Assembly: GCA_964431175.1 (NCBI GenBank)
Contig: CAYSIV010000003.1
Coordinates: forward strand, 14,464-49,132
Direction: 5' to 3'
Origin: an uncultured Anaerolineales bacterium
Lineage (GTDB): Bacteria > Chloroflexota > Anaerolineae > Anaerolineales > VGOW01
DNA length: 34,669 nucleotides
Below, piece by piece: positions 7,740 through 34,669 of this stretch. Made by a program: the position numbers and the translations under genes. Below the pieces are notes generated by a model. That model had not been told where the DNA came from, ran no database searches, and saw only the letters and a list, made by a program, of their open reading frames with translations. Every line of letters begins with the position of its first letter. Position 1 is the stretch's first letter.

Positions 7740-7828
7740 GCCAGTGCGCGCTTCGACAGGCTCAGCGCGCGGCCTGAGCCTGTCGTGCGCGGCCTGAGCC
7801 TGTCGAAGGCTGCTATTTCCGATAGAGT
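7724..7828. repeat. MITE/REP-like element: imperfect terminal inverted repeats enclosing inverted CTGAGCCTGTCGAAG palindromic units
   Basis: Left end ACTCTATTCAAAATA versus right-end reverse complement ACTCTATCGGAAATA. Internal CTTCGACAGGCTCAG (7751-7765) is inverted to CTGAGCCTGTCGAAG (7794-7808). There is a 19-bp duplication at 7767-7785/7787-7805, and AATGAAY heptamers flank the element. Confidence 0.7.
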
Positions 7829-29749: not shown

Positions 29750-30350
29750 ACAAGCTGTCCACTGCCAGTTCCAGCCCGGCCAGGGCGGCCGACTTCAAAC
29801 GCTCGCCGTTGCCAAACTGACCGAGCAGGGCGTACTCGACGCCATCAGCCGGAAGCGTGTACACTTCTACCGACCGGGTCTTGGGATCCACTAGCCAGTA
29901 TTCGCGGACTTTGGCTTGCTCGTAAGCGCCGAATTTGATGTGCTGATCGAGGCGCAAACTGCCGGGCGAGATCACTTCCACCACCAGATCGGGCGCGCCC
30001 TCAAAAATTTGGGCATCGGAAGCAGGCTGGCGCTGAGCGGCGATGAACAGAACATCGGGCTGAACAGGCTTGGCAATGCCGGGCAAGTGAACTTCAAACG
30101 GGGCGGCGATGACGCCGCCCAAAGCGGGTTCGTCCACGAAGGTTGCTAATTGCTTGACGAGACGAGATACGGCAAACTGATGTTCGTAAGAGGGTGCGTT
30201 AGCTACGTATAAAACTCCTTCGATGATCTCGCAGCGTTTGCCGTCGTCCGGCAGGCGAAGGTAGTCCTCGTAAGTCCATTGGCCTTGAGGCGGCCACGAT
30301 TGTTCGGCGGGGAGCGAAGTCAGAGGAGGCGTTGTGGTCAACATAGGCAT
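29733..30350 (-). CDS. Uma2 family (PD-(D/E)XK) putative endonuclease
   Basis: WTYEDYLRLPDDGKRCEIIEG, HQ, VQPDV, APDLVVEVISP, KFGAYEQAKVREYWLVDP. Start at ATG 30350 after GGAG, with TATAAT at 30372-30367 on the minus strand. Confidence 0.9.
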   Translation of the reverse strand: MPMLTTTPPLTSLPAEQSWPPQGQWTYEDYLRLPDDGKRCEIIEGVLYVANAPSYEHQFAVSRLVKQLATFVDEPALGGVIAAPFEVHLPGIAKPVQPDVLFIAAQRQPASDAQIFEGAPDLVVEVISPGSLRLDQHIKFGAYEQAKVREYWLVDPKTRSVEVYTLPADGVEYALLGQFGNGERLKSAALAGLELAVDSLFTLPA

Positions 30351-30389
30351 TGCTTCTCCAGAGAAGATTATAGCATTGAGGATACAATT

Positions 30390-32342
30390 ATGTGTGGCAT
30401 TTGCGGAATAGTAACCATTGGCGACGGCCCGCGCGTGGACGCGGCCTTGCTCGACAAGATGCGCGACACCATTGCCCATCGCGGGCCAGACGACGCCGGC
30501 AGTTGGGTCTCAACTGATGGTTGTGTGGGGCTGGCCAACCGGCGGCTGGCGATCATTGACCTCAGCCCGGCCGGCCACCAGCCGATGAGCAATGAGGCTT
30601 GTGCTGAGCGAAGTCGAAGCAACGGATCAGTGTGGATTGCCTACAACGGCGAAACGTACACCTACGCCGAACACTTTGAGCCGCTCAAAGCGCGCGGCCA
30701 TGTCTTTCGTTCGCAGTCCGATACTGAAGTCATCGTCCACCTTTACGAAGAATACGGCCACGATTGCCTGCACCGATTGCGCGGCATGTTTGGCCTTGCC
30801 TTGTGGGACGAGCACAAGCGCGAGTTGTTTTTGGCCCGCGACCGGCTGGGGGTGAAGCCGCTGTATTACACCTTTGTCGGCGGCCAGTTCATCTTTGGCT
30901 CGGAGATCAAGGCCATTCTGCGCCACCCGGCGGTGAGACGCGAAATGGATCTCGCGGCCTTCTATCACTTCCTCACTTTCCTCACCCCGCCCGCACCCGA
31001 CACTCTGTTCAAAGGCATCCACAAACTGCCGCCCGGCCATTGGGCCGTGCTCAAAGCTGACACGGGTGAGTTTCGCGTCGAAGAGTATTGGGACGTGTAC
31101 GACGCCGCCTGCTACGATCCGCAACTTACCGAGGGCGAGTGGGCCGAACGTTTGCGGGCCAAGCTGGCCGAGTCGGTGAAATTGCGCATGGTGTCGGATG
31201 TGCCATTCGGCGTGTTTCTGTCGGGCGGGATGGACTCGACGGTGAACACGGCGTTGATGGCGGCCCAGATGGACAGGCCGGTGCAGACGTTTTCTATCGG
31301 CTACAAAGACGCGCCCGATTACAACGAGTTCGAGTGGGCGCGGCAGGCGGCCAAACATTTTGCCACCGACCACCACGAAGTGCAGATCGGCCTTCAGGAC
31401 TTTCTTGACTTCTTGCCCAAGCTGGTCTATCACCAGGACGAGCCCATTGCCGACCCGGTGTGCGTGCCGATCTATTTTGTTTCCAAGTTGGCGAAGGAGG
31501 CCGGCACAACCGTGATTCAGGTGGGCGAGGGGAGCGACGAGCTGTTTTGCGGCTACCGCCACTGGGTGGACATTTTGCGTTTGCACAGCGGCGCCTGGCA
31601 GGCGTACTCGGCCTTGCCCCGCCCGGTGAAGCAATTAGCCCTGGCGGGCGGCGGCGCGGCGCTGAGTGAGGTGCGTTACGAATATGTGCGGCGGGCGACG
31701 GATGGCGAGGAGTTGTTCTGGGGCGGGGCGGAGGCGTTCGGTGAGGCGCGGAAGAACGGGTTGATTACAGAGTCGGTTCGACGCGCGGTTGGCGGCCTCT
31801 CCTCGCACGACGTCATCCGCAAGTTCCGCAAACGATTCGAGGAGCGCAGTCCGCATCTCGATTATCTCAGTTGGATGGGCTATTTAGATTTGCGTCTGCG
31901 TCTGCCCGAACTGCTGTTGATGCGGGTGGACAAGATGACGATGGCGACTTCGATTGAAGCCCGGGTGCCCTACCTTGATCACGAGTTTGTAGGGCTGGCG
32001 ATGAGCATCCCCCAACGGCTCAAAGTGGGTCAGGCGGTTCAACCCAAGCAGTTATTCAAGCAGGCGGTGCGCGGCCTGATCCCGGACACGATCATTGACC
32101 GGCCCAAGCAGGGCTTCCGCGTGCCGGTGACCGACTGGATGGCCGAGGCGCTTGGCGCGTTTGGCCGGGACACTCTGCAAAAGTTCTGCGCCCGAACCGA
32201 TTACTTGCGCTGGCCGGTGGTGGAGAAGTTGATTGACCGGCGGGACGAGTTGGCGTGGTATTTGCTCAACTTTGCCCTGTGGCACGAGATGTGGATTGAG
32301 GGGGAGCCTGCATTGGACAAAGGTGTACAATTATCGCAATGA
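30390..32342 (+). CDS. asnB: Asparagine synthase (glutamine-hydrolysing)-like amidotransferase 3
   Basis: True start is MCGICG at 30390 after GAGG. HRGPD, YNGE, LSGGMDS, GEGSDELFCGY, RPKQGF. Confidence 0.92.
   Translation: MCGICGIVTIGDGPRVDAALLDKMRDTIAHRGPDDAGSWVSTDGCVGLANRRLAIIDLSPAGHQPMSNEACAERSRSNGSVWIAYNGETYTYAEHFEPLKARGHVFRSQSDTEVIVHLYEEYGHDCLHRLRGMFGLALWDEHKRELFLARDRLGVKPLYYTFVGGQFIFGSEIKAILRHPAVRREMDLAAFYHFLTFLTPPAPDTLFKGIHKLPPGHWAVLKADTGEFRVEEYWDVYDAACYDPQLTEGEWAERLRAKLAESVKLRMVSDVPFGVFLSGGMDSTVNTALMAAQMDRPVQTFSIGYKDAPDYNEFEWARQAAKHFATDHHEVQIGLQDFLDFLPKLVYHQDEPIADPVCVPIYFVSKLAKEAGTTVIQVGEGSDELFCGYRHWVDILRLHSGAWQAYSALPRPVKQLALAGGGAALSEVRYEYVRRATDGEELFWGGAEAFGEARKNGLITESVRRAVGGLSSHDVIRKFRKRFEERSPHLDYLSWMGYLDLRLRLPELLLMRVDKMTMATSIEARVPYLDHEFVGLAMSIPQRLKVGQAVQPKQLFKQAVRGLIPDTIIDRPKQGFRVPVTDWMAEALGAFGRDTLQKFCARTDYLRWPVVEKLIDRRDELAWYLLNFALWHEMWIEGEPALDKGVQLSQ
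30597..30620. repeat. 24-bp REP-like unit inserted in frame in asnB3
   Basis: GCTTGTGCTGAGCGAAGTCGAAGC encodes ACAERSRS, which is absent from the two paralogs (NEDGS/NEDRS). Confidence 0.8.
32188..32308 (+). repeat. Direct repeat copy 1 (asnB3 3' end)
   Basis: 121 bp matching 33288-33408 with 7 mismatches. Confidence 0.95.
32326..32331 (+). promoter_or_regulatory. Putative -10 box for a leaderless MNT-HEPN transcript
   Basis: TACAAT ends 7 nt before ATG 32339; no SD motif is visible. Confidence 0.4.
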
Positions 32343-32827
32343 GAGCGCAATTTGAGTCTCTGCTAGCGCACCTGCTGACGGCATGCCTTGAATATTACGG
32401 CGAACGGCTGGTTTCGTTGGCCGTTTTTGGCTCGGTAGGGCGGGGCACGCCGCGCCCTGACTCGGACATAGACTTGCTTATTGTGGCTGAGGCTTTGCCA
32501 AATGGCCGGCTGAAACGCGTTGACGAGTTCCGCGTCGTCGAGGCAAAACTGGCCCCCCGCTTGGCCGAAGCGCGGGCGGATGGTCTTGCCGCCGAGTTGT
32601 CACCTGTCTTCAAAACCCCGGCTGAAGTTCGGCAAGGCAGTCTGCTATTTCTGGATATGACTGAGGATGCACGCATTTTGCACGACCGGGATAATTTTCT
32701 GCGGGAAGCGTTGGCCCGGTTCAAAGAGCAGTTAAATCGTTTAGGCGCGCGCCGGATCTGGCAGGGCAACGCCTGGTTTTGGGATTTGAAGCCGGACTAT
32801 AAGCCTGGCGAGGTTTTTGAAATATGA
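32339..32827 (+). CDS. Minimal nucleotidyltransferase (MNT) domain protein, putative antitoxin
   Basis: FGSVGRGTPRPDSDIDL matches the GSX10DXD motif. Confidence 0.9.
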   Translation: MRAQFESLLAHLLTACLEYYGERLVSLAVFGSVGRGTPRPDSDIDLLIVAEALPNGRLKRVDEFRVVEAKLAPRLAEARADGLAAELSPVFKTPAEVRQGSLLFLDMTEDARILHDRDNFLREALARFKEQLNRLGARRIWQGNAWFWDLKPDYKPGEVFEI

Positions 32828-33282
32828 CGAACATCTCGCTGGCGCAAAGTTATCTAATCAAGGCCCTTAAGCGGTTGAAAATTCTGGCCGTTCTGCTCGG
32901 CGACGAAGCCTTCTCCGATGTTGTGCGTGAAGCGCAGGAAATTGTGGAACTGGCGCTGAAAGGGATGTTGCGCCAGGTTGGCATCGAGCCGCCCAAGTTC
33001 CACGATGTCGGCGGGGCGCTGGATGAATATCGAGAGCGTTTCCCCGAATCCGCGCGCGGGCAAATTGAGCGTCTGATGGAGATTTCACGATGGCTGAGGA
33101 AAGAGCGCGAGTTTTCATTCTACGGCGATATTGATTTCATCCCCACGGAAGAGTACGATCGCGCTGACGCCCTGCGAGCCATTGAAGACGCCAAGTTCGT
33201 CGTTTCTGTAGCCGGGTCAGTGATCCGCCCGACTGATGAGGCTCCCGACGAGAAAGCCGATGCCAGTGAGAAGGCGAAGTGA
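32824..33282 (+). CDS. HEPN domain protein, partner of MNT
   Basis: All-helical pattern AQEIVELALKGML...HDV...RKEREFSFYGD...DALRAIEDA; ATGA overlap with MNT. Confidence 0.85.
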   Translation: MTNISLAQSYLIKALKRLKILAVLLGDEAFSDVVREAQEIVELALKGMLRQVGIEPPKFHDVGGALDEYRERFPESARGQIERLMEISRWLRKEREFSFYGDIDFIPTEEYDRADALRAIEDAKFVVSVAGSVIRPTDEAPDEKADASEKAK

Positions 33283-33461: not shown

Positions 33462-33531
33462 GCCCAACGTTGCGGTTCAGCCGCGTTGCGAAGCGCAGCG
33501 GAGCAACGTCGGCTGGAACCGCTTGTTAGGC
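33462..33531 (-). mobile_element. Integron attC recombination site (70 bp, complete)
   Basis: Minus strand GCCTAAC-AAGCG-GTTCCAGC...GCTGAAC-CGCAAC-GTTGGGC. The bottom-strand hairpin pairs fully except for the canonical extrahelical G and T. Confidence 0.92.
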
Positions 33532-33580: not shown

Positions 33581-34042
33581 TTATGCCTGTATGAAATAGA
33601 TGCCAACGGATAACACTCCCATAGCGATGGGCGTTAGACTGAAGAACCAGCCGATAAGGCGGTTGCTGGCCGATACTCCGGTTATCAACACTGCCACCTT
33701 GGGGTTGTCGGGGTTGTAGTGAACTGTGACGGTTGAACCGATCGGATATTTCGAGACGTCTTCTCTCGCCGCCGCGTGCCACCAGATTTCAGGCTGAATC
33801 CCAAACCCTAGCCGCTGGGAGTGGTATTGGACATCTGCGACTGTGTAGGTGTAGCCCACTTTCAGGCCGTAAGAGATGCCTTCAGCCGCGTAGCGTTGAA
33901 TACCGGCGGACTGGATTGTGCCTGGGGTGGTGGGCCAGTGTGTACTCAGTCCTCCCCATCTCAGTGCCTGGGTTTGGCGATAGAGCATACCTAGTCCAAT
34001 GCCGAGCAAGATCAATCCGCCGATCAGAAAGATTTCGTTCAT
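33581..34042 (-). CDS. DUF3592-like membrane protein; integron gene cassette
   Basis: N- and C-terminal TMs, WPTTPGTI, YTYTV...Y, YPIGSTVTVHYNPDNP. Bounded by G|TTAGGC upstream and the complementary GCCTAAC downstream. Confidence 0.85.
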   Translation of the reverse strand: MNEIFLIGGLILLGIGLGMLYRQTQALRWGGLSTHWPTTPGTIQSAGIQRYAAEGISYGLKVGYTYTVADVQYHSQRLGFGIQPEIWWHAAAREDVSKYPIGSTVTVHYNPDNPKVAVLITGVSASNRLIGWFFSLTPIAMGVLSVGIYFIQA

Positions 34043-34098
34043 CGCGCCGTTCAGACGTATCCTGTCGTTTAGAAACTGTTAGCCGCTTGACCGCGAGG

Positions 34099-34185
34099 GC
34101 CTAACGGCCAGGTTTAGGCGCGGGGCGGTAAAGTAGCGACTCGCTCAAACCAGGCGCGCCCAGCCCCGTCGCCTGCAACCCGTGT
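34099..34185 (-). mobile_element. Integron attC site interrupted at its R'' end
   Basis: On the + strand GCCTAAC-GGCCAG-GTTTAGGCGCGGGGC pairs with GCCCCGTCGCCTGCAACC with two bulged bases. The expected GTTRRRY is cut after GT and replaced by GTGCG. Confidence 0.82.
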
Positions 34186-34669
34186 GTGCGACCCGTTCGC
34201 TCGAAACTATACGCAAGTATAGGAGGATGAGCGGCAAAGAGCAAGATGGTCTTTGACAACTCGCGAAGCGTGTCCACGTTGGTGAAACCCCAACCCCTGA
34301 GGTGGTCAGGAGACCGCATCTCCCTACGGCAAGCGACTGGTTATCAACCCTTCGGCTTCGCTCAGGGCTGGAGTGCAAGGGAGAGAAGGCGATAAGCGTC
34401 GAGCCGAACGACGCGACGTGCCAAGCAAGTGACTATGGGTAACGTAAGTGAAGGTGTATTGAGGCGTCGTCATGCAGAACCAGCCCCCGATTGGAGCTGT
34501 CGGGGGCTGGCCCAAACGGGAATTGGTATCAGGTTACGTAGCCACTGCGTACGTGACACCACTCGTCAGATACCCGGCGTAAAGTATCACCCTAACACCG
34601 CATCAAATGGACACTCGGAACGGGGCAACCTTCAATGGCTCTCGCAAGAGTAGGCAACCAGCCACAAGC
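34186..34669 (+). mobile_element. Group II intron, 5' part (domain I onward); runs off the window, no RT ORF visible
   Basis: Begins with GTGCG (GUGYG consensus) exactly where the attC breaks. It is non-coding and hairpin-rich: TATAC-GCAA-GTATA, GTTGG-TGAAACC-CCAAC, CCAGCCCCCGA/TCGGGGGCTGG, GTTACGTA/TACGTGAC, CTC-GCAA-GAG, plus a GGAAC..G.AACC junction-like motif. Confidence 0.75.
34348..34367. repeat. REP-like unit inside the intron
   Basis: CCCTTCGGCTTCGCTCAGGG is the reverse complement of CCCTGAGCGAAGCCGAAGGG, the same family as 30597-30620. Confidence 0.7.

Follow-up and report, generated by a model that had tools for sequence, protein, structure and literature searches.

In the sections of the literature on which we draw, the group IIC-attC introns are described as forming a monophyletic group inside class C (PMC3001079), and a 2015 review, which distinguishes three target specificities among bacterial group II introns, assigns the one for attC to class C only (PMC4424553). 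Among introns of another kind, EcI5 of plasmid pO157 is a IIB1 intron with a reverse transcriptase (RT) of the CL1 (chloroplast-like 1) type, and the solved structures 6ME0 and 6MEC are those of the T. elongatus intron Th.e.I3 (PMC8643678, in part); the introns of T. elongatus are classed as CL/IIB1, and trans-mobilisation of TeI3 introns lacking an open reading frame (ORF) has been shown experimentally (PMC2882425, in part). According to the excerpted text of Sonbol & Siam (2021), one full CL1/IIB1 intron (UHB.I2) lies directly after an attC site, two class E fragments (H.ha.F1 and H.ha.F2) lie in a cluster of attC sites lacking an integron integrase (CALIN), and a role of the hairpin is a matter of speculation (PMC7923331). 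Here we analyse a stretch of 34,669 nt, the window, from an uncultured Anaerolineales bacterium (contig CAYSIV010000003.1, positions C3:14464-49132), at the end of which an integron attC site is interrupted by a group II intron. We consider it very probable that this end of the window is the beginning of an ORF-less intron of ~800 nt, of type IIB1/CL1, from a lineage that homes to attC sites by base pairing and is distinct from the IIC-attC introns. The lineage is found mostly in metagenome-assembled genomes (MAGs) of Chloroflexota/Anaerolineae and in environmental metagenomes. The coordinates of the features are collected in Table 1.

Table 1. Features at the intron-bearing end of the window, with the evidence for each.
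Feature	Position	Strand	Basis
Intact attC, bottom strand on the plus strand; last attC of the array on the contig	33462..33531	+	hairpin scan
Cassette ORF, 153 aa, DUF3592, between both attC sites	33581..34042	-	Pfam PF12158, E 3.7e-14
5' part of the interrupted attC, the 5' exon of the intron	34099..34185	+	nhmmer E 2.3e-19
Intron-binding site 2, IBS2 (CTGCA), within the L'' portion of attC, complement of exon-binding site 2, EBS2 (UGCAG)	34173..34177	+	5-pair run
IBS1 position (CCGTGT), partial pairing with its own EBS1 loop	34180..34185	+	3-pair run from -1
Group II intron, nt 1-484: GTGCG, whole domain I (to ~34625), start of domain II	34186..34669	+	blastn homology, consensus structure
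REP-like hairpin (CCCTGAGC..CCGAAGGG on the minus strand) in domain I	34347..34368	-	motif count (C3:48807)
EBS2 (AUGCAG), unpaired, on the 5' side of hairpin 34481-34513	34472..34477	+	consensus structure columns 401-407
EBS1 hairpin, stem GTTACGTA/TACGTGAC, loop GCCACTGCG (34541-34549)	34533..34557	+	compensatory changes, columns 484-511
EBS3 (A in GGCGTA[A]AG)	34582	+	pairing with first 3'-exon base

The final base of the window, 34669, coincides with the end of the contig, and therefore only a truncated element, nucleotides 1-484 of the intron, is covered. Positions 34099-34185 on the plus strand represent the bottom strand of an integron attC site that is interrupted after the GT of its GTTRRRY box; this segment holds the complement of the R' box (GCCTAAC, 34099-34105), both arms of the hairpin and the GT itself. 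The junction reads ...GCCTGCAACCCGTGT followed at once by GTGCGACCCGTTCG or, more widely, ...CGCCTGCAACCCGTGT followed by GTGCGACCCGTTCGCTCGAAAC..., the first G of GTGCG being position 34186. When 34001-34669 was compared with its own genome by blastn, similarity to other copies began at 34186 (contig C487) or 34187 (C38), and the sequence from 34186 onward proved to be a repeated element with copies on C487, C38 (two), C37, C179 and C27 at 80-91% identity. By the same comparison, the 87 nt upstream (34099-34185) are found again on C221 (twice), C468 and C32, there lacking the element. These intron-free paralogues of the window attC read ...CAACCCGTGTTGGGC and have the layout GCCCAAC-...-CTGCAACCCGT-GTTGGGC and similar, with GCCCAAC...CTGCAACCCGTGTTGGGC at one site of C221 and GGCTAAC...CTGCAACCCGGGGTTAGGC at the other (C221b). 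Because the empty paralogues are uninterrupted, the window site has been split between the GT and the T of the 3' GTTRRRY box. A preliminary description of this DNA had left the junction uncertain by about 1 nt on account of a 4-nt spacer between L'' and R''; that spacer differs in size among the attC paralogues, and the start of the homology together with the empty paralogues fixes the boundary at 34186, which settles the doubt. The intron is on the plus strand and the cassette ORF on the minus strand, and the junction is confirmed as first described, with an intron in the bottom strand of attC and antisense to the cassettes. The 3' exon had been expected to resume with a TRRRY-like sequence. 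This holds for the assembled sister copies, in which the 3' exons start with TTGGGC, TTAGAC, TTCGGC or TAGAC, the remainder of GTTRRRY; the 3' exon of the window copy itself is unassembled. The copy on C179 was considered as a continuation of the window intron and dropped, as the 96-nt overlap is just 89.6% identical.

Introns of group IIC have a CGC triad in domain V (DV), lack EBS2, and combine a short IBS1 with reliance on the upstream hairpin. In every member of the present family, DV starts with GAGCC and thus has an AGC triad. The sister copies match the Rfam model RF00029 (DV-DVI) with 43.6-48.8 bits, where the cut-off is 40 (two on C38, one each on C179 and C487), an A bulges from their DVI 7 nt before the end, and a complete copy (C38:26603-27397, minus strand) is 795 nt long and has no ORF. 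DV and DVI, predicted to lie downstream, are therefore present in sister copies, and the window copy reaches the contig end before them; Rfam found no group II family in the window at gathering thresholds, nor in 33900-34669 at E <= 10. In the consensus structure computed with RNAalifold for 24 sequences (the window and 23 relatives), 59 of the 95 pairs show compensatory double changes, including those of long-range helices in domain I (DI). The closing helix of DI pairs intron positions 8-12 with AACGG at 34619-34623, which gives DI a length of ~440 nt in the window copy and bears out the earlier estimate of more than 400 nt. A DI profile made from the same alignment matches the DI of EcI5 (L200 1064-1350; E 5.7e-11) and that of a Fischerella intron (E 1.3e-66), and had no match at E <= 10 in a Klebsiella plasmid intron. 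An ordinary IIC-attC intron of class C, with a DI that merely seems long, would share the target (bottom strand, between GT and T) and the antisense orientation, as these are described for such introns in the text drawn on (PMC3001079). However, the AGC triad, the ~440-nt DI with its well-supported extra helices and the match to the DI of EcI5 all speak against it, as do the proteins and the exon-binding sites of the relatives.

Relatives were gathered by an exact match to the first 21 bases of the intron. This 5' end was found in 44 stretches of species-representative genomes, mostly MAGs of Chloroflexota/Anaerolineae, the other hosts being the cyanobacteria Stenomitos and Leptolyngbya, Binatia, Acidobacteriota, Kiritimatiellia, and gammaproteobacterial and Desulfuromonadales MAGs; metagenomes contributed at least 120 stretches, 80 of which were retrieved. 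Many of the relatives are ORF-less introns of 760-910 nt. Four others (L060, L075, L082 and L088) are 2.3-kb introns with intact ORFs of 547-556 aa, in which the 5' exon ends with an arm ...TGCA-N5-7-G/GT (that is, G or GT) and the 3' exon completes GTT, and the intron of Leptolyngbya (L067) has an ORF of 582 aa. All 484 intron nt of the window can be aligned, from end to end, to the 5' end of the L060 intron, with an identity of 77% (E 9e-102). The RT ORF that was expected downstream is thus present in relatives only, the window intron having no ORF and the assembly no intron-encoded protein (IEP). A DNA search of 60 related genomes with the full copy returned only DV-sized fragments, in three genomes, with no RF00029 match and no RT ORF, and close relatives are therefore uninformative.

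The IEPs of L060 and L067 contain the Pfam domains RVT_N, RVT_1 and GIIM; HNH is clear in L067 and, at 20.1 bits, slightly below the cut-off in L060. Among solved structures, 6me0_C is the best match for the IEPs of L060 (E 7e-104) and L075 (5e-96), in each case along the whole protein. For LtrA and the IIC enzymes the values are 1e-33 to 1e-40, mainly in the RT part; GsI-IIC matches the RT only and 7uim the RT and thumb, both at ~1e-38 to 1e-40. The intron protein of pO157 EDL933 (EcI5) shares 37.8% identity with the L060 IEP across 96% of the length; for a Fischerella plasmid protein, the identity to the L060 IEP is 53.9%. The attC-associated IEPs are 61-85% identical to each other and 51-54% identical to the cyanobacterial IEP. 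A class C intron is hard to reconcile with proteins that carry HNH, the endonuclease (En) domain, and match the IIB1 protein of T. elongatus at E 7e-104 and the IIC RTs at only ~1e-38.

The exon-binding sites were examined in 37 distinct intron/exon combinations. At least five contiguous pairs between EBS1 and the exon, counted from position -1, are present in 21 of the 37 (11% in non-cognate combinations); runs of 6-7 pairs are common, and in the introns of the second target type described below, EBS1 AUUAAGG lies opposite CCUUAAU. For EBS2, runs of at least five pairs with exon positions ~-13 to -8 occur in 23 of the 37, compared with 18% in non-cognate combinations. The partner of the window EBS2 in attC is CUGCA(U), and the relatives display the compensatory variants UGCAC/GUGCA, UGAAG/CUUCA, AUUGAU/AUCAAU and GAGUUAG/CUAAC. 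EBS3 pairs with the first base of the 3' exon in 23 of 26 distinct introns, and all four Watson-Crick pairs are represented (A-T 13, G-C 5, C-G 2 and T-A 1, besides T-G 2). Because EBS3 of the window copy is A, T is expected as the first base of its unassembled 3' exon, so that the site would read GT^T (the caret marks the insertion point). The pairing of EBS1, EBS2 and EBS3 is the recognition scheme of IIB introns. Two candidate EBS hairpins had been proposed; EBS1 indeed lies in a hairpin loop, and EBS2 is instead single-stranded, just 5' of a hairpin. An EBS2 that covaries with the exon is a further feature at odds with group IIC, and we regard a IIC-attC intron as extremely improbable here. 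The original assignment to a IIB/CL-type ribozyme is upheld by the AGC triad, the covarying EBS2 and the IEPs nearest to 6me0_C.

The target sites of the family were compared at 125 evaluable junctions, which reduce to 110 distinct 40-nt flanks. Sixty-seven of these 110 are attC arms on the bottom strand: 57 are of type 1, as in the window, and end with ...GTCGGCTGCA-N4-10-G/GT, and 10 are of type 2 and end with ...CGCCGCATCAATCCTTAAT. GTT is rebuilt across the junction in 12 of the 12 type-1 introns for which both ends are known. Intron-free type-2 sites (L050, C147 and C179) continue with CGTTRRRY, and therefore the insertion is one base ahead of GTT. A further nine flanks, the RYYYAAC class, end 5-12 nt past an RYYYAAC box, and five have the cyanobacterial target ...GGACT-N6-7-GGACT. 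In addition, a covariance model (R1) was built solely from six intron-free attC sites of the window's genome (33462-33531 among them) and searched in the 100 loci L031-L130, leaving out L131-L154. R1 had 65 matches at E <= 0.01. In 24 of the 100 loci, a match abuts the intron at its 5' end on the same strand and in one register (d = 3-6), always with the final 3-6 positions of the model displaced, for a chance expectation of ~0.14, a rough figure from match density. The other 41 matches fall at different places in these loci, in many cases with the 0.3-2 kb spacing of cassette arrays, and 32 of them are on the intron's strand; the opposite-strand matches come chiefly from loci of the RYYYAAC class. 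A rule-based minimum-free-energy detector, which recognised 31 of 125 flanks and 5 of 400 control positions, had low sensitivity and was superseded by the motif classes and R1. The 5' flanks of homologous introns are thus attC sites to a large extent, as had been anticipated, by the motif classes and by R1 rather than by IntegronFinder. Like the anatomy, the class features and the covariation, these target statistics are direct observations.

A generic IIB1 intron might have entered the window attC by chance, through ectopic retrotransposition, in a family without specificity for attC. The flanks that are not attC-like and the five cyanobacterial GGACT sites could be taken in this sense, as could the copy on C487, which has no attC and neither EBS segment of which fits its exon. 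However, attC arms in fixed registers make up 67 of the 110 flanks, the abutting R1 matches far exceed the expectation from chance, EBS2 complements the conserved CTGCA of attC with compensatory variants in relatives, and two more copies in the same genome lie within attC sites, on C37 (type 1) and C27 (type 2). We therefore hold a chance insertion to be very improbable.

Further observations concern the minor target classes. A sub-lineage with the 3' end ...TTGCCTACTGTAAC (L119, L150, L098, L100, L078 and L081/L099) is inserted 7-11 nt past the RYYYAAC box, and its EBS2 (GAGUUAG) has its partner, CTAAC, in the R'' box itself. In L119, an entire attC with an extra base on the 5' arm results when the ligated exons are folded, which indicates insertion into the top strand and in sense orientation. 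The cyanobacterial members (L038, L040, L049, L056 and L067, from Stenomitos and Leptolyngbya) follow ...TGGACT-N6-7-GGACT and have no attC; L049 is an intron on a Stenomitos plasmid. Three loci (L050, L061 and L090) have the same type-2 attC intron with a 278-aa ORF unrelated to RTs in the region of domain IV (nt ~735-1640), and this ORF looks like a nested insertion sequence.

The nature of the flank as an integron attC also has to be considered. The flank in the window has RYYYAAC/GTTRRRY boxes, spacers that do not pair, and an imperfect hairpin in which single extra bases are confined to the 3' arm; these extra bases and the minus-strand ORF identify the plus strand as the bottom strand. 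The genome has nine strong attC copies according to nhmmer. For the C221b copy, the DNA folding energy is -35 kcal/mol (z -5.7), the array on C221 has attC sites at 71, 936 (weak) and 1623, and the last intact attC of the window, 33462-33531, reads GCCCAAC ... GTCGGCTGGAACCGCTT GTTAGGC. This site alone was taken from a generic scan for AAC...GTT hairpins, which is far too permissive in GC-rich DNA and has many matches inside genes. An intI match on C472 scores 278 bits, exceeds the cut-off of TIGR02249 and is interrupted by two stops. It is the sole intI gene of the assembly (L011 1477-2391; frames of 175 aa and 99 aa) and is a pseudogene or an assembly error; C472 is a 3.4-kb contig with no attC hits, and its intI is unlinked to the window. 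Of five host genomes tested, four have an integrase above the curated cut-off, compared with none of 14 controls.

If the flank were instead another palindromic repeat of the repetitive extragenic palindromic (REP) kind, the integron reading would be wrong. This is suggested by the abundance of small palindromes in the genome (118 copies of another hairpin), by the broken and unlinked intI on C472, and by most public loci, in which the flank is not repeated in near-identical form within 8 kb; a self-similarity search found such extra copies in the own locus only for L044, L050 and L061. However, a repeat of this kind would not explain the boxes, the unpaired spacers and the single extra bases confined to one arm, nor the cassette-like spacing with small ORFs in between that is seen in the window, C221, L116, L105, L082 and L044. 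Moreover, the strands are uniform, as in the 32 of 41 additional R1 matches, and the integron integrases of the host genomes score 470-500 bits. We accordingly consider another palindromic repeat very unlikely and retain the attC assignment. The genome has a second attC family, GGCTTAGTTCAAC...AATCCTTAAT-CGTTRRRY (C27 3249-3360, that is L003; C147; and C179 10518-10604), one copy of which holds a diverged intron with EBS1 and EBS2 that match perfectly, 6/6 each.

For an attC-homing IIB1/CL1 lineage, we infer retrohoming, mobilisation in trans and a loss of IntI recombination at the window attC, as follows. The window intron would have reverse-spliced into the bottom strand of attC between the GT and the T of GTTRRRY, the complement of R''. 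A ribonucleoprotein of lariat RNA and an En-plus IEP would do so at an attC arm chosen by the three exon-binding sites, with EBS2 pairing to CTGCA of L'', EBS1 to the spacer and the G or GT, and EBS3 to the next T. Because these partners are the conserved bases of L''-spacer-R'', any attC of the family would be a homing site. The registers (G^TT, GT^T, T^CGTT, AATCC^TTA and the top strand) would be set by the EBS sequences and not by a structural landmark, and sub-lineages with other EBSs would have reached the second attC family (with insertion one base ahead of GTT), the top strand after RYYYAAC, and non-attC sites. Autonomous members encode an RT-X-D-En protein, and ORF-less members would be spliced and mobilised in trans, as is TeI3. 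The insertion parts the R'' box from the rest of attC, which would prevent excision of the upstream cassette by IntI.

In a broader form, which we find rather probable, the lineage is an undescribed and widespread En-plus CL1/IIB1 clade specialised on attC, with EBSs tuned to L''-spacer-R'' in two attC families, three registers and either strand; it would have arisen independently of the IIC-attC introns, with a different mode of recognition, and would spread with a 23-nt hairpin in DV. In the full-text literature, subscription papers aside, we found no account of an En-plus CL1 clade with systematic base-pairing homing to attC. The preliminary description had suggested an independent and possibly undescribed lineage that uses attC sites. 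The use of attC is borne out by 67 of the 110 flanks and by R1, and the word undescribed holds only in part, as isolated associations of IIB introns with integrons already appear in the excerpted text of PMC7923331.

Several points weigh against an attC-homing IIB1/CL1 lineage and against the place of the window copy in it. The contig end deprives the window copy of most of DII-DVI and of the 3' exon, and sister copies and relatives are the basis for its class. None of the Rfam D1-D4 models matches, even at E <= 10, and a full copy matched the DV-DVI models only. The CL1 label is based on best matches and domain content rather than on a curated IEP tree, with classes A, B, D, E and F outside the comparison. 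The collection by an exact 21-mer means that the public set samples one shallow clade, and attC sites were called by our own rules and a model from the window's genome, not by IntegronFinder. Of the 110 distinct flanks, 29 are of other, not attC-like sequence, and within the window's genome the 5' flank of the C487 copy is likewise not attC-like. The EBS1 loop of the window copy, GCCACUGCG, pairs weakly with its own exon CCGUGU, over three contiguous bases, and for this reason it may be that the copy did not home to this site on its own, or that it has drifted. Finally, the 95%-complete assembly of 517 contigs has no match to the GIIM domain (PF08388), and tblastn with the L060 and L075 IEPs found no intron-type RT in it.

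A cognate IEP elsewhere in the same genome, as a TeI3-like intron mobilised in trans would need, was thus not found. The sole tblastn finds were three RTs of 372-383 aa with 26-28% identity to the intron proteins. These three (L008, L009 and L010, on C153, C511 and C7) have RVT_1 only and an IGNLTSQ motif, which we take to be typical of the RTs of diversity-generating retroelements (DGRs), and they look like DGR-type RTs rather than intron proteins. The present mobility of the window copy is doubtful, because the assembly has no IEP, the match between EBS1 and the exon is poor, and the copies are only 80-91% identical to each other. The copies of this genome may be relics, or an IEP-bearing copy may be unassembled. 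With the identity of the element unchanged, the window copy could even be a dead, non-splicing fossil that is retained only because it lies in non-coding DNA, a possibility to which we give slightly less than even credence. The same three observations favour it, in addition to the REP-like hairpin inside DI and a 23-nt insertion in the DV of sister copies. However, the differences between the copies are often compensatory (GTCGG/CCGAC versus GTTGG/CCAAC, CCTGCC/GGCAGG versus CCAGCC/GGCTGG), which fits constraint on an RNA. In addition, the DV insertion is common to copies that are ~80% diverged and to L058 of another genome, so that insertion-bearing introns seem to have spread, and repeats are under-assembled in the 95%-complete MAG.

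The hairpin in question has a conserved CTGAGC-N3-6-YCGAAG loop with variable complementary stems. It occurs 118 times in the genome and 2 times in a reversed-sequence control, often in inverted pairs in the manner of REP or REP doublets forming hairpins (REPINs), also at window positions 7745-7815, and it has no Rfam match. Within introns it sits in both orientations. According to the alignment, the DI hairpin of the window copy is missing from several sister copies. In DV, the hairpin forms the 23-nt insertion on the 3' strand of the upper helix; the insertion is present in L001 6646-6702 (minus strand), L001 7440-7496 (minus strand), C487, C104, C27 and L058, and the predicted structure is a three-way junction in which the GC-GAAA-GC tip is kept. 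The C179 copy, L060 and most relatives have no DV insertion, and C179 and L073 carry the hairpin in another domain. That the insertion is common to copies ~80% diverged suggests that introns bearing it have spread.

At the end of C38 (L001 6603-8055, minus strand), two introns are arranged head to tail. The upstream intron ends with ...GACCGTACC, after which the sequence is TGCGACCC; the bases next to this intron end, TGCGACC, are the downstream intron minus its first G. Because the end of the upstream copy is directly followed by a downstream intron lacking this G, the insertion of the upstream intron seems to have taken place behind the first G of its downstream neighbour. In the upstream copy, EBS1 (CCAC) suits an exon ending in GTGG, that is, attC plus that G. 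The start of C37 (C37 1-243) and the end of C38 overlap by exactly 22 nt inside a repeat, which is compatible with adjacency and no proof of it. On the plus strand at 32339-33282, after an asparagine synthase gene (30279-32342) and before the last attC, the window holds a toxin-antitoxin-like pair of a nucleotidyltransferase (PF01909) and a HEPN protein (PF05168); the pair borders the cassette array and runs opposite to the cassette ORF.

If a second, unrelated intron lineage has indeed settled on attC, these sites would be a convergent safe haven for retroelements. The sedentary chromosomal integrons of Chloroflexota would then carry intron parasites of their own that break up recombination sites and may lock cassettes in place. 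Such introns would also constitute a natural set of the IIB1 type, the targetron class, aimed at a structured and often single-stranded DNA. The natural EBS/IBS variants offer a ready test of how IIB introns handle hairpin targets, and the variants with a DV insertion probe the tolerance of the catalytic domain.

Compared with the known systems, the window lineage resembles the group IIC-attC introns such as S.ma.I2, in the text available on them, in its insertion into the attC bottom strand on the R'' side, in antisense orientation and with the site split (PMC3001079, PMC4424553). It differs from them in the ribozyme (an AGC triad, a large DI and EBS2), in the protein (CL1-like IEPs with an En domain), and apparently in recognition, as EBS1 and EBS2 pairings of 5-7 bp covary with the attC family in varied registers. 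The hosts also differ, being Chloroflexota MAGs for the window lineage and proteobacterial mobile integrons for IIC-attC.

The window lineage is like TeI4 and TeI3 (Th.e.I3) of T. elongatus and EcI5 of E. coli in the architecture and sequence of the IEP and in recognition by EBS1, EBS2 and EBS3. As in T. elongatus, ORF-less derivatives have proliferated and introns are inserted in or beside introns (PMC2882425, in part). However, TeI4, TeI3 and EcI5 occupy unique sites in genes or insertion sequences, whereas the window lineage homes to attC, and many copies in the window's genome, unlike these introns, have the hairpin insertion in DV. Unlike the situation of TeI3, the assembly of the window's genome has no IEP for its ORF-less copies.

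UHB.I2 and the fragments H.ha.F1 and H.ha.F2 are also IIB-type introns beside attC sites in integrons or CALINs. In the portion of PMC7923331 on which we rely, UHB.I2 is a single case whose IEP is En-minus and has its nearest relatives in introns of Shewanella and Legionella, lies in cassette-sense orientation, has the atypical boundaries UUGCG..GU, and is reported with no conserved flanking exons found. In contrast, the window lineage is En-plus, has entered attC sites independently dozens of times, at fixed positions, and displays complementarity between its exon-binding sites and the attC sequences into which it is inserted.

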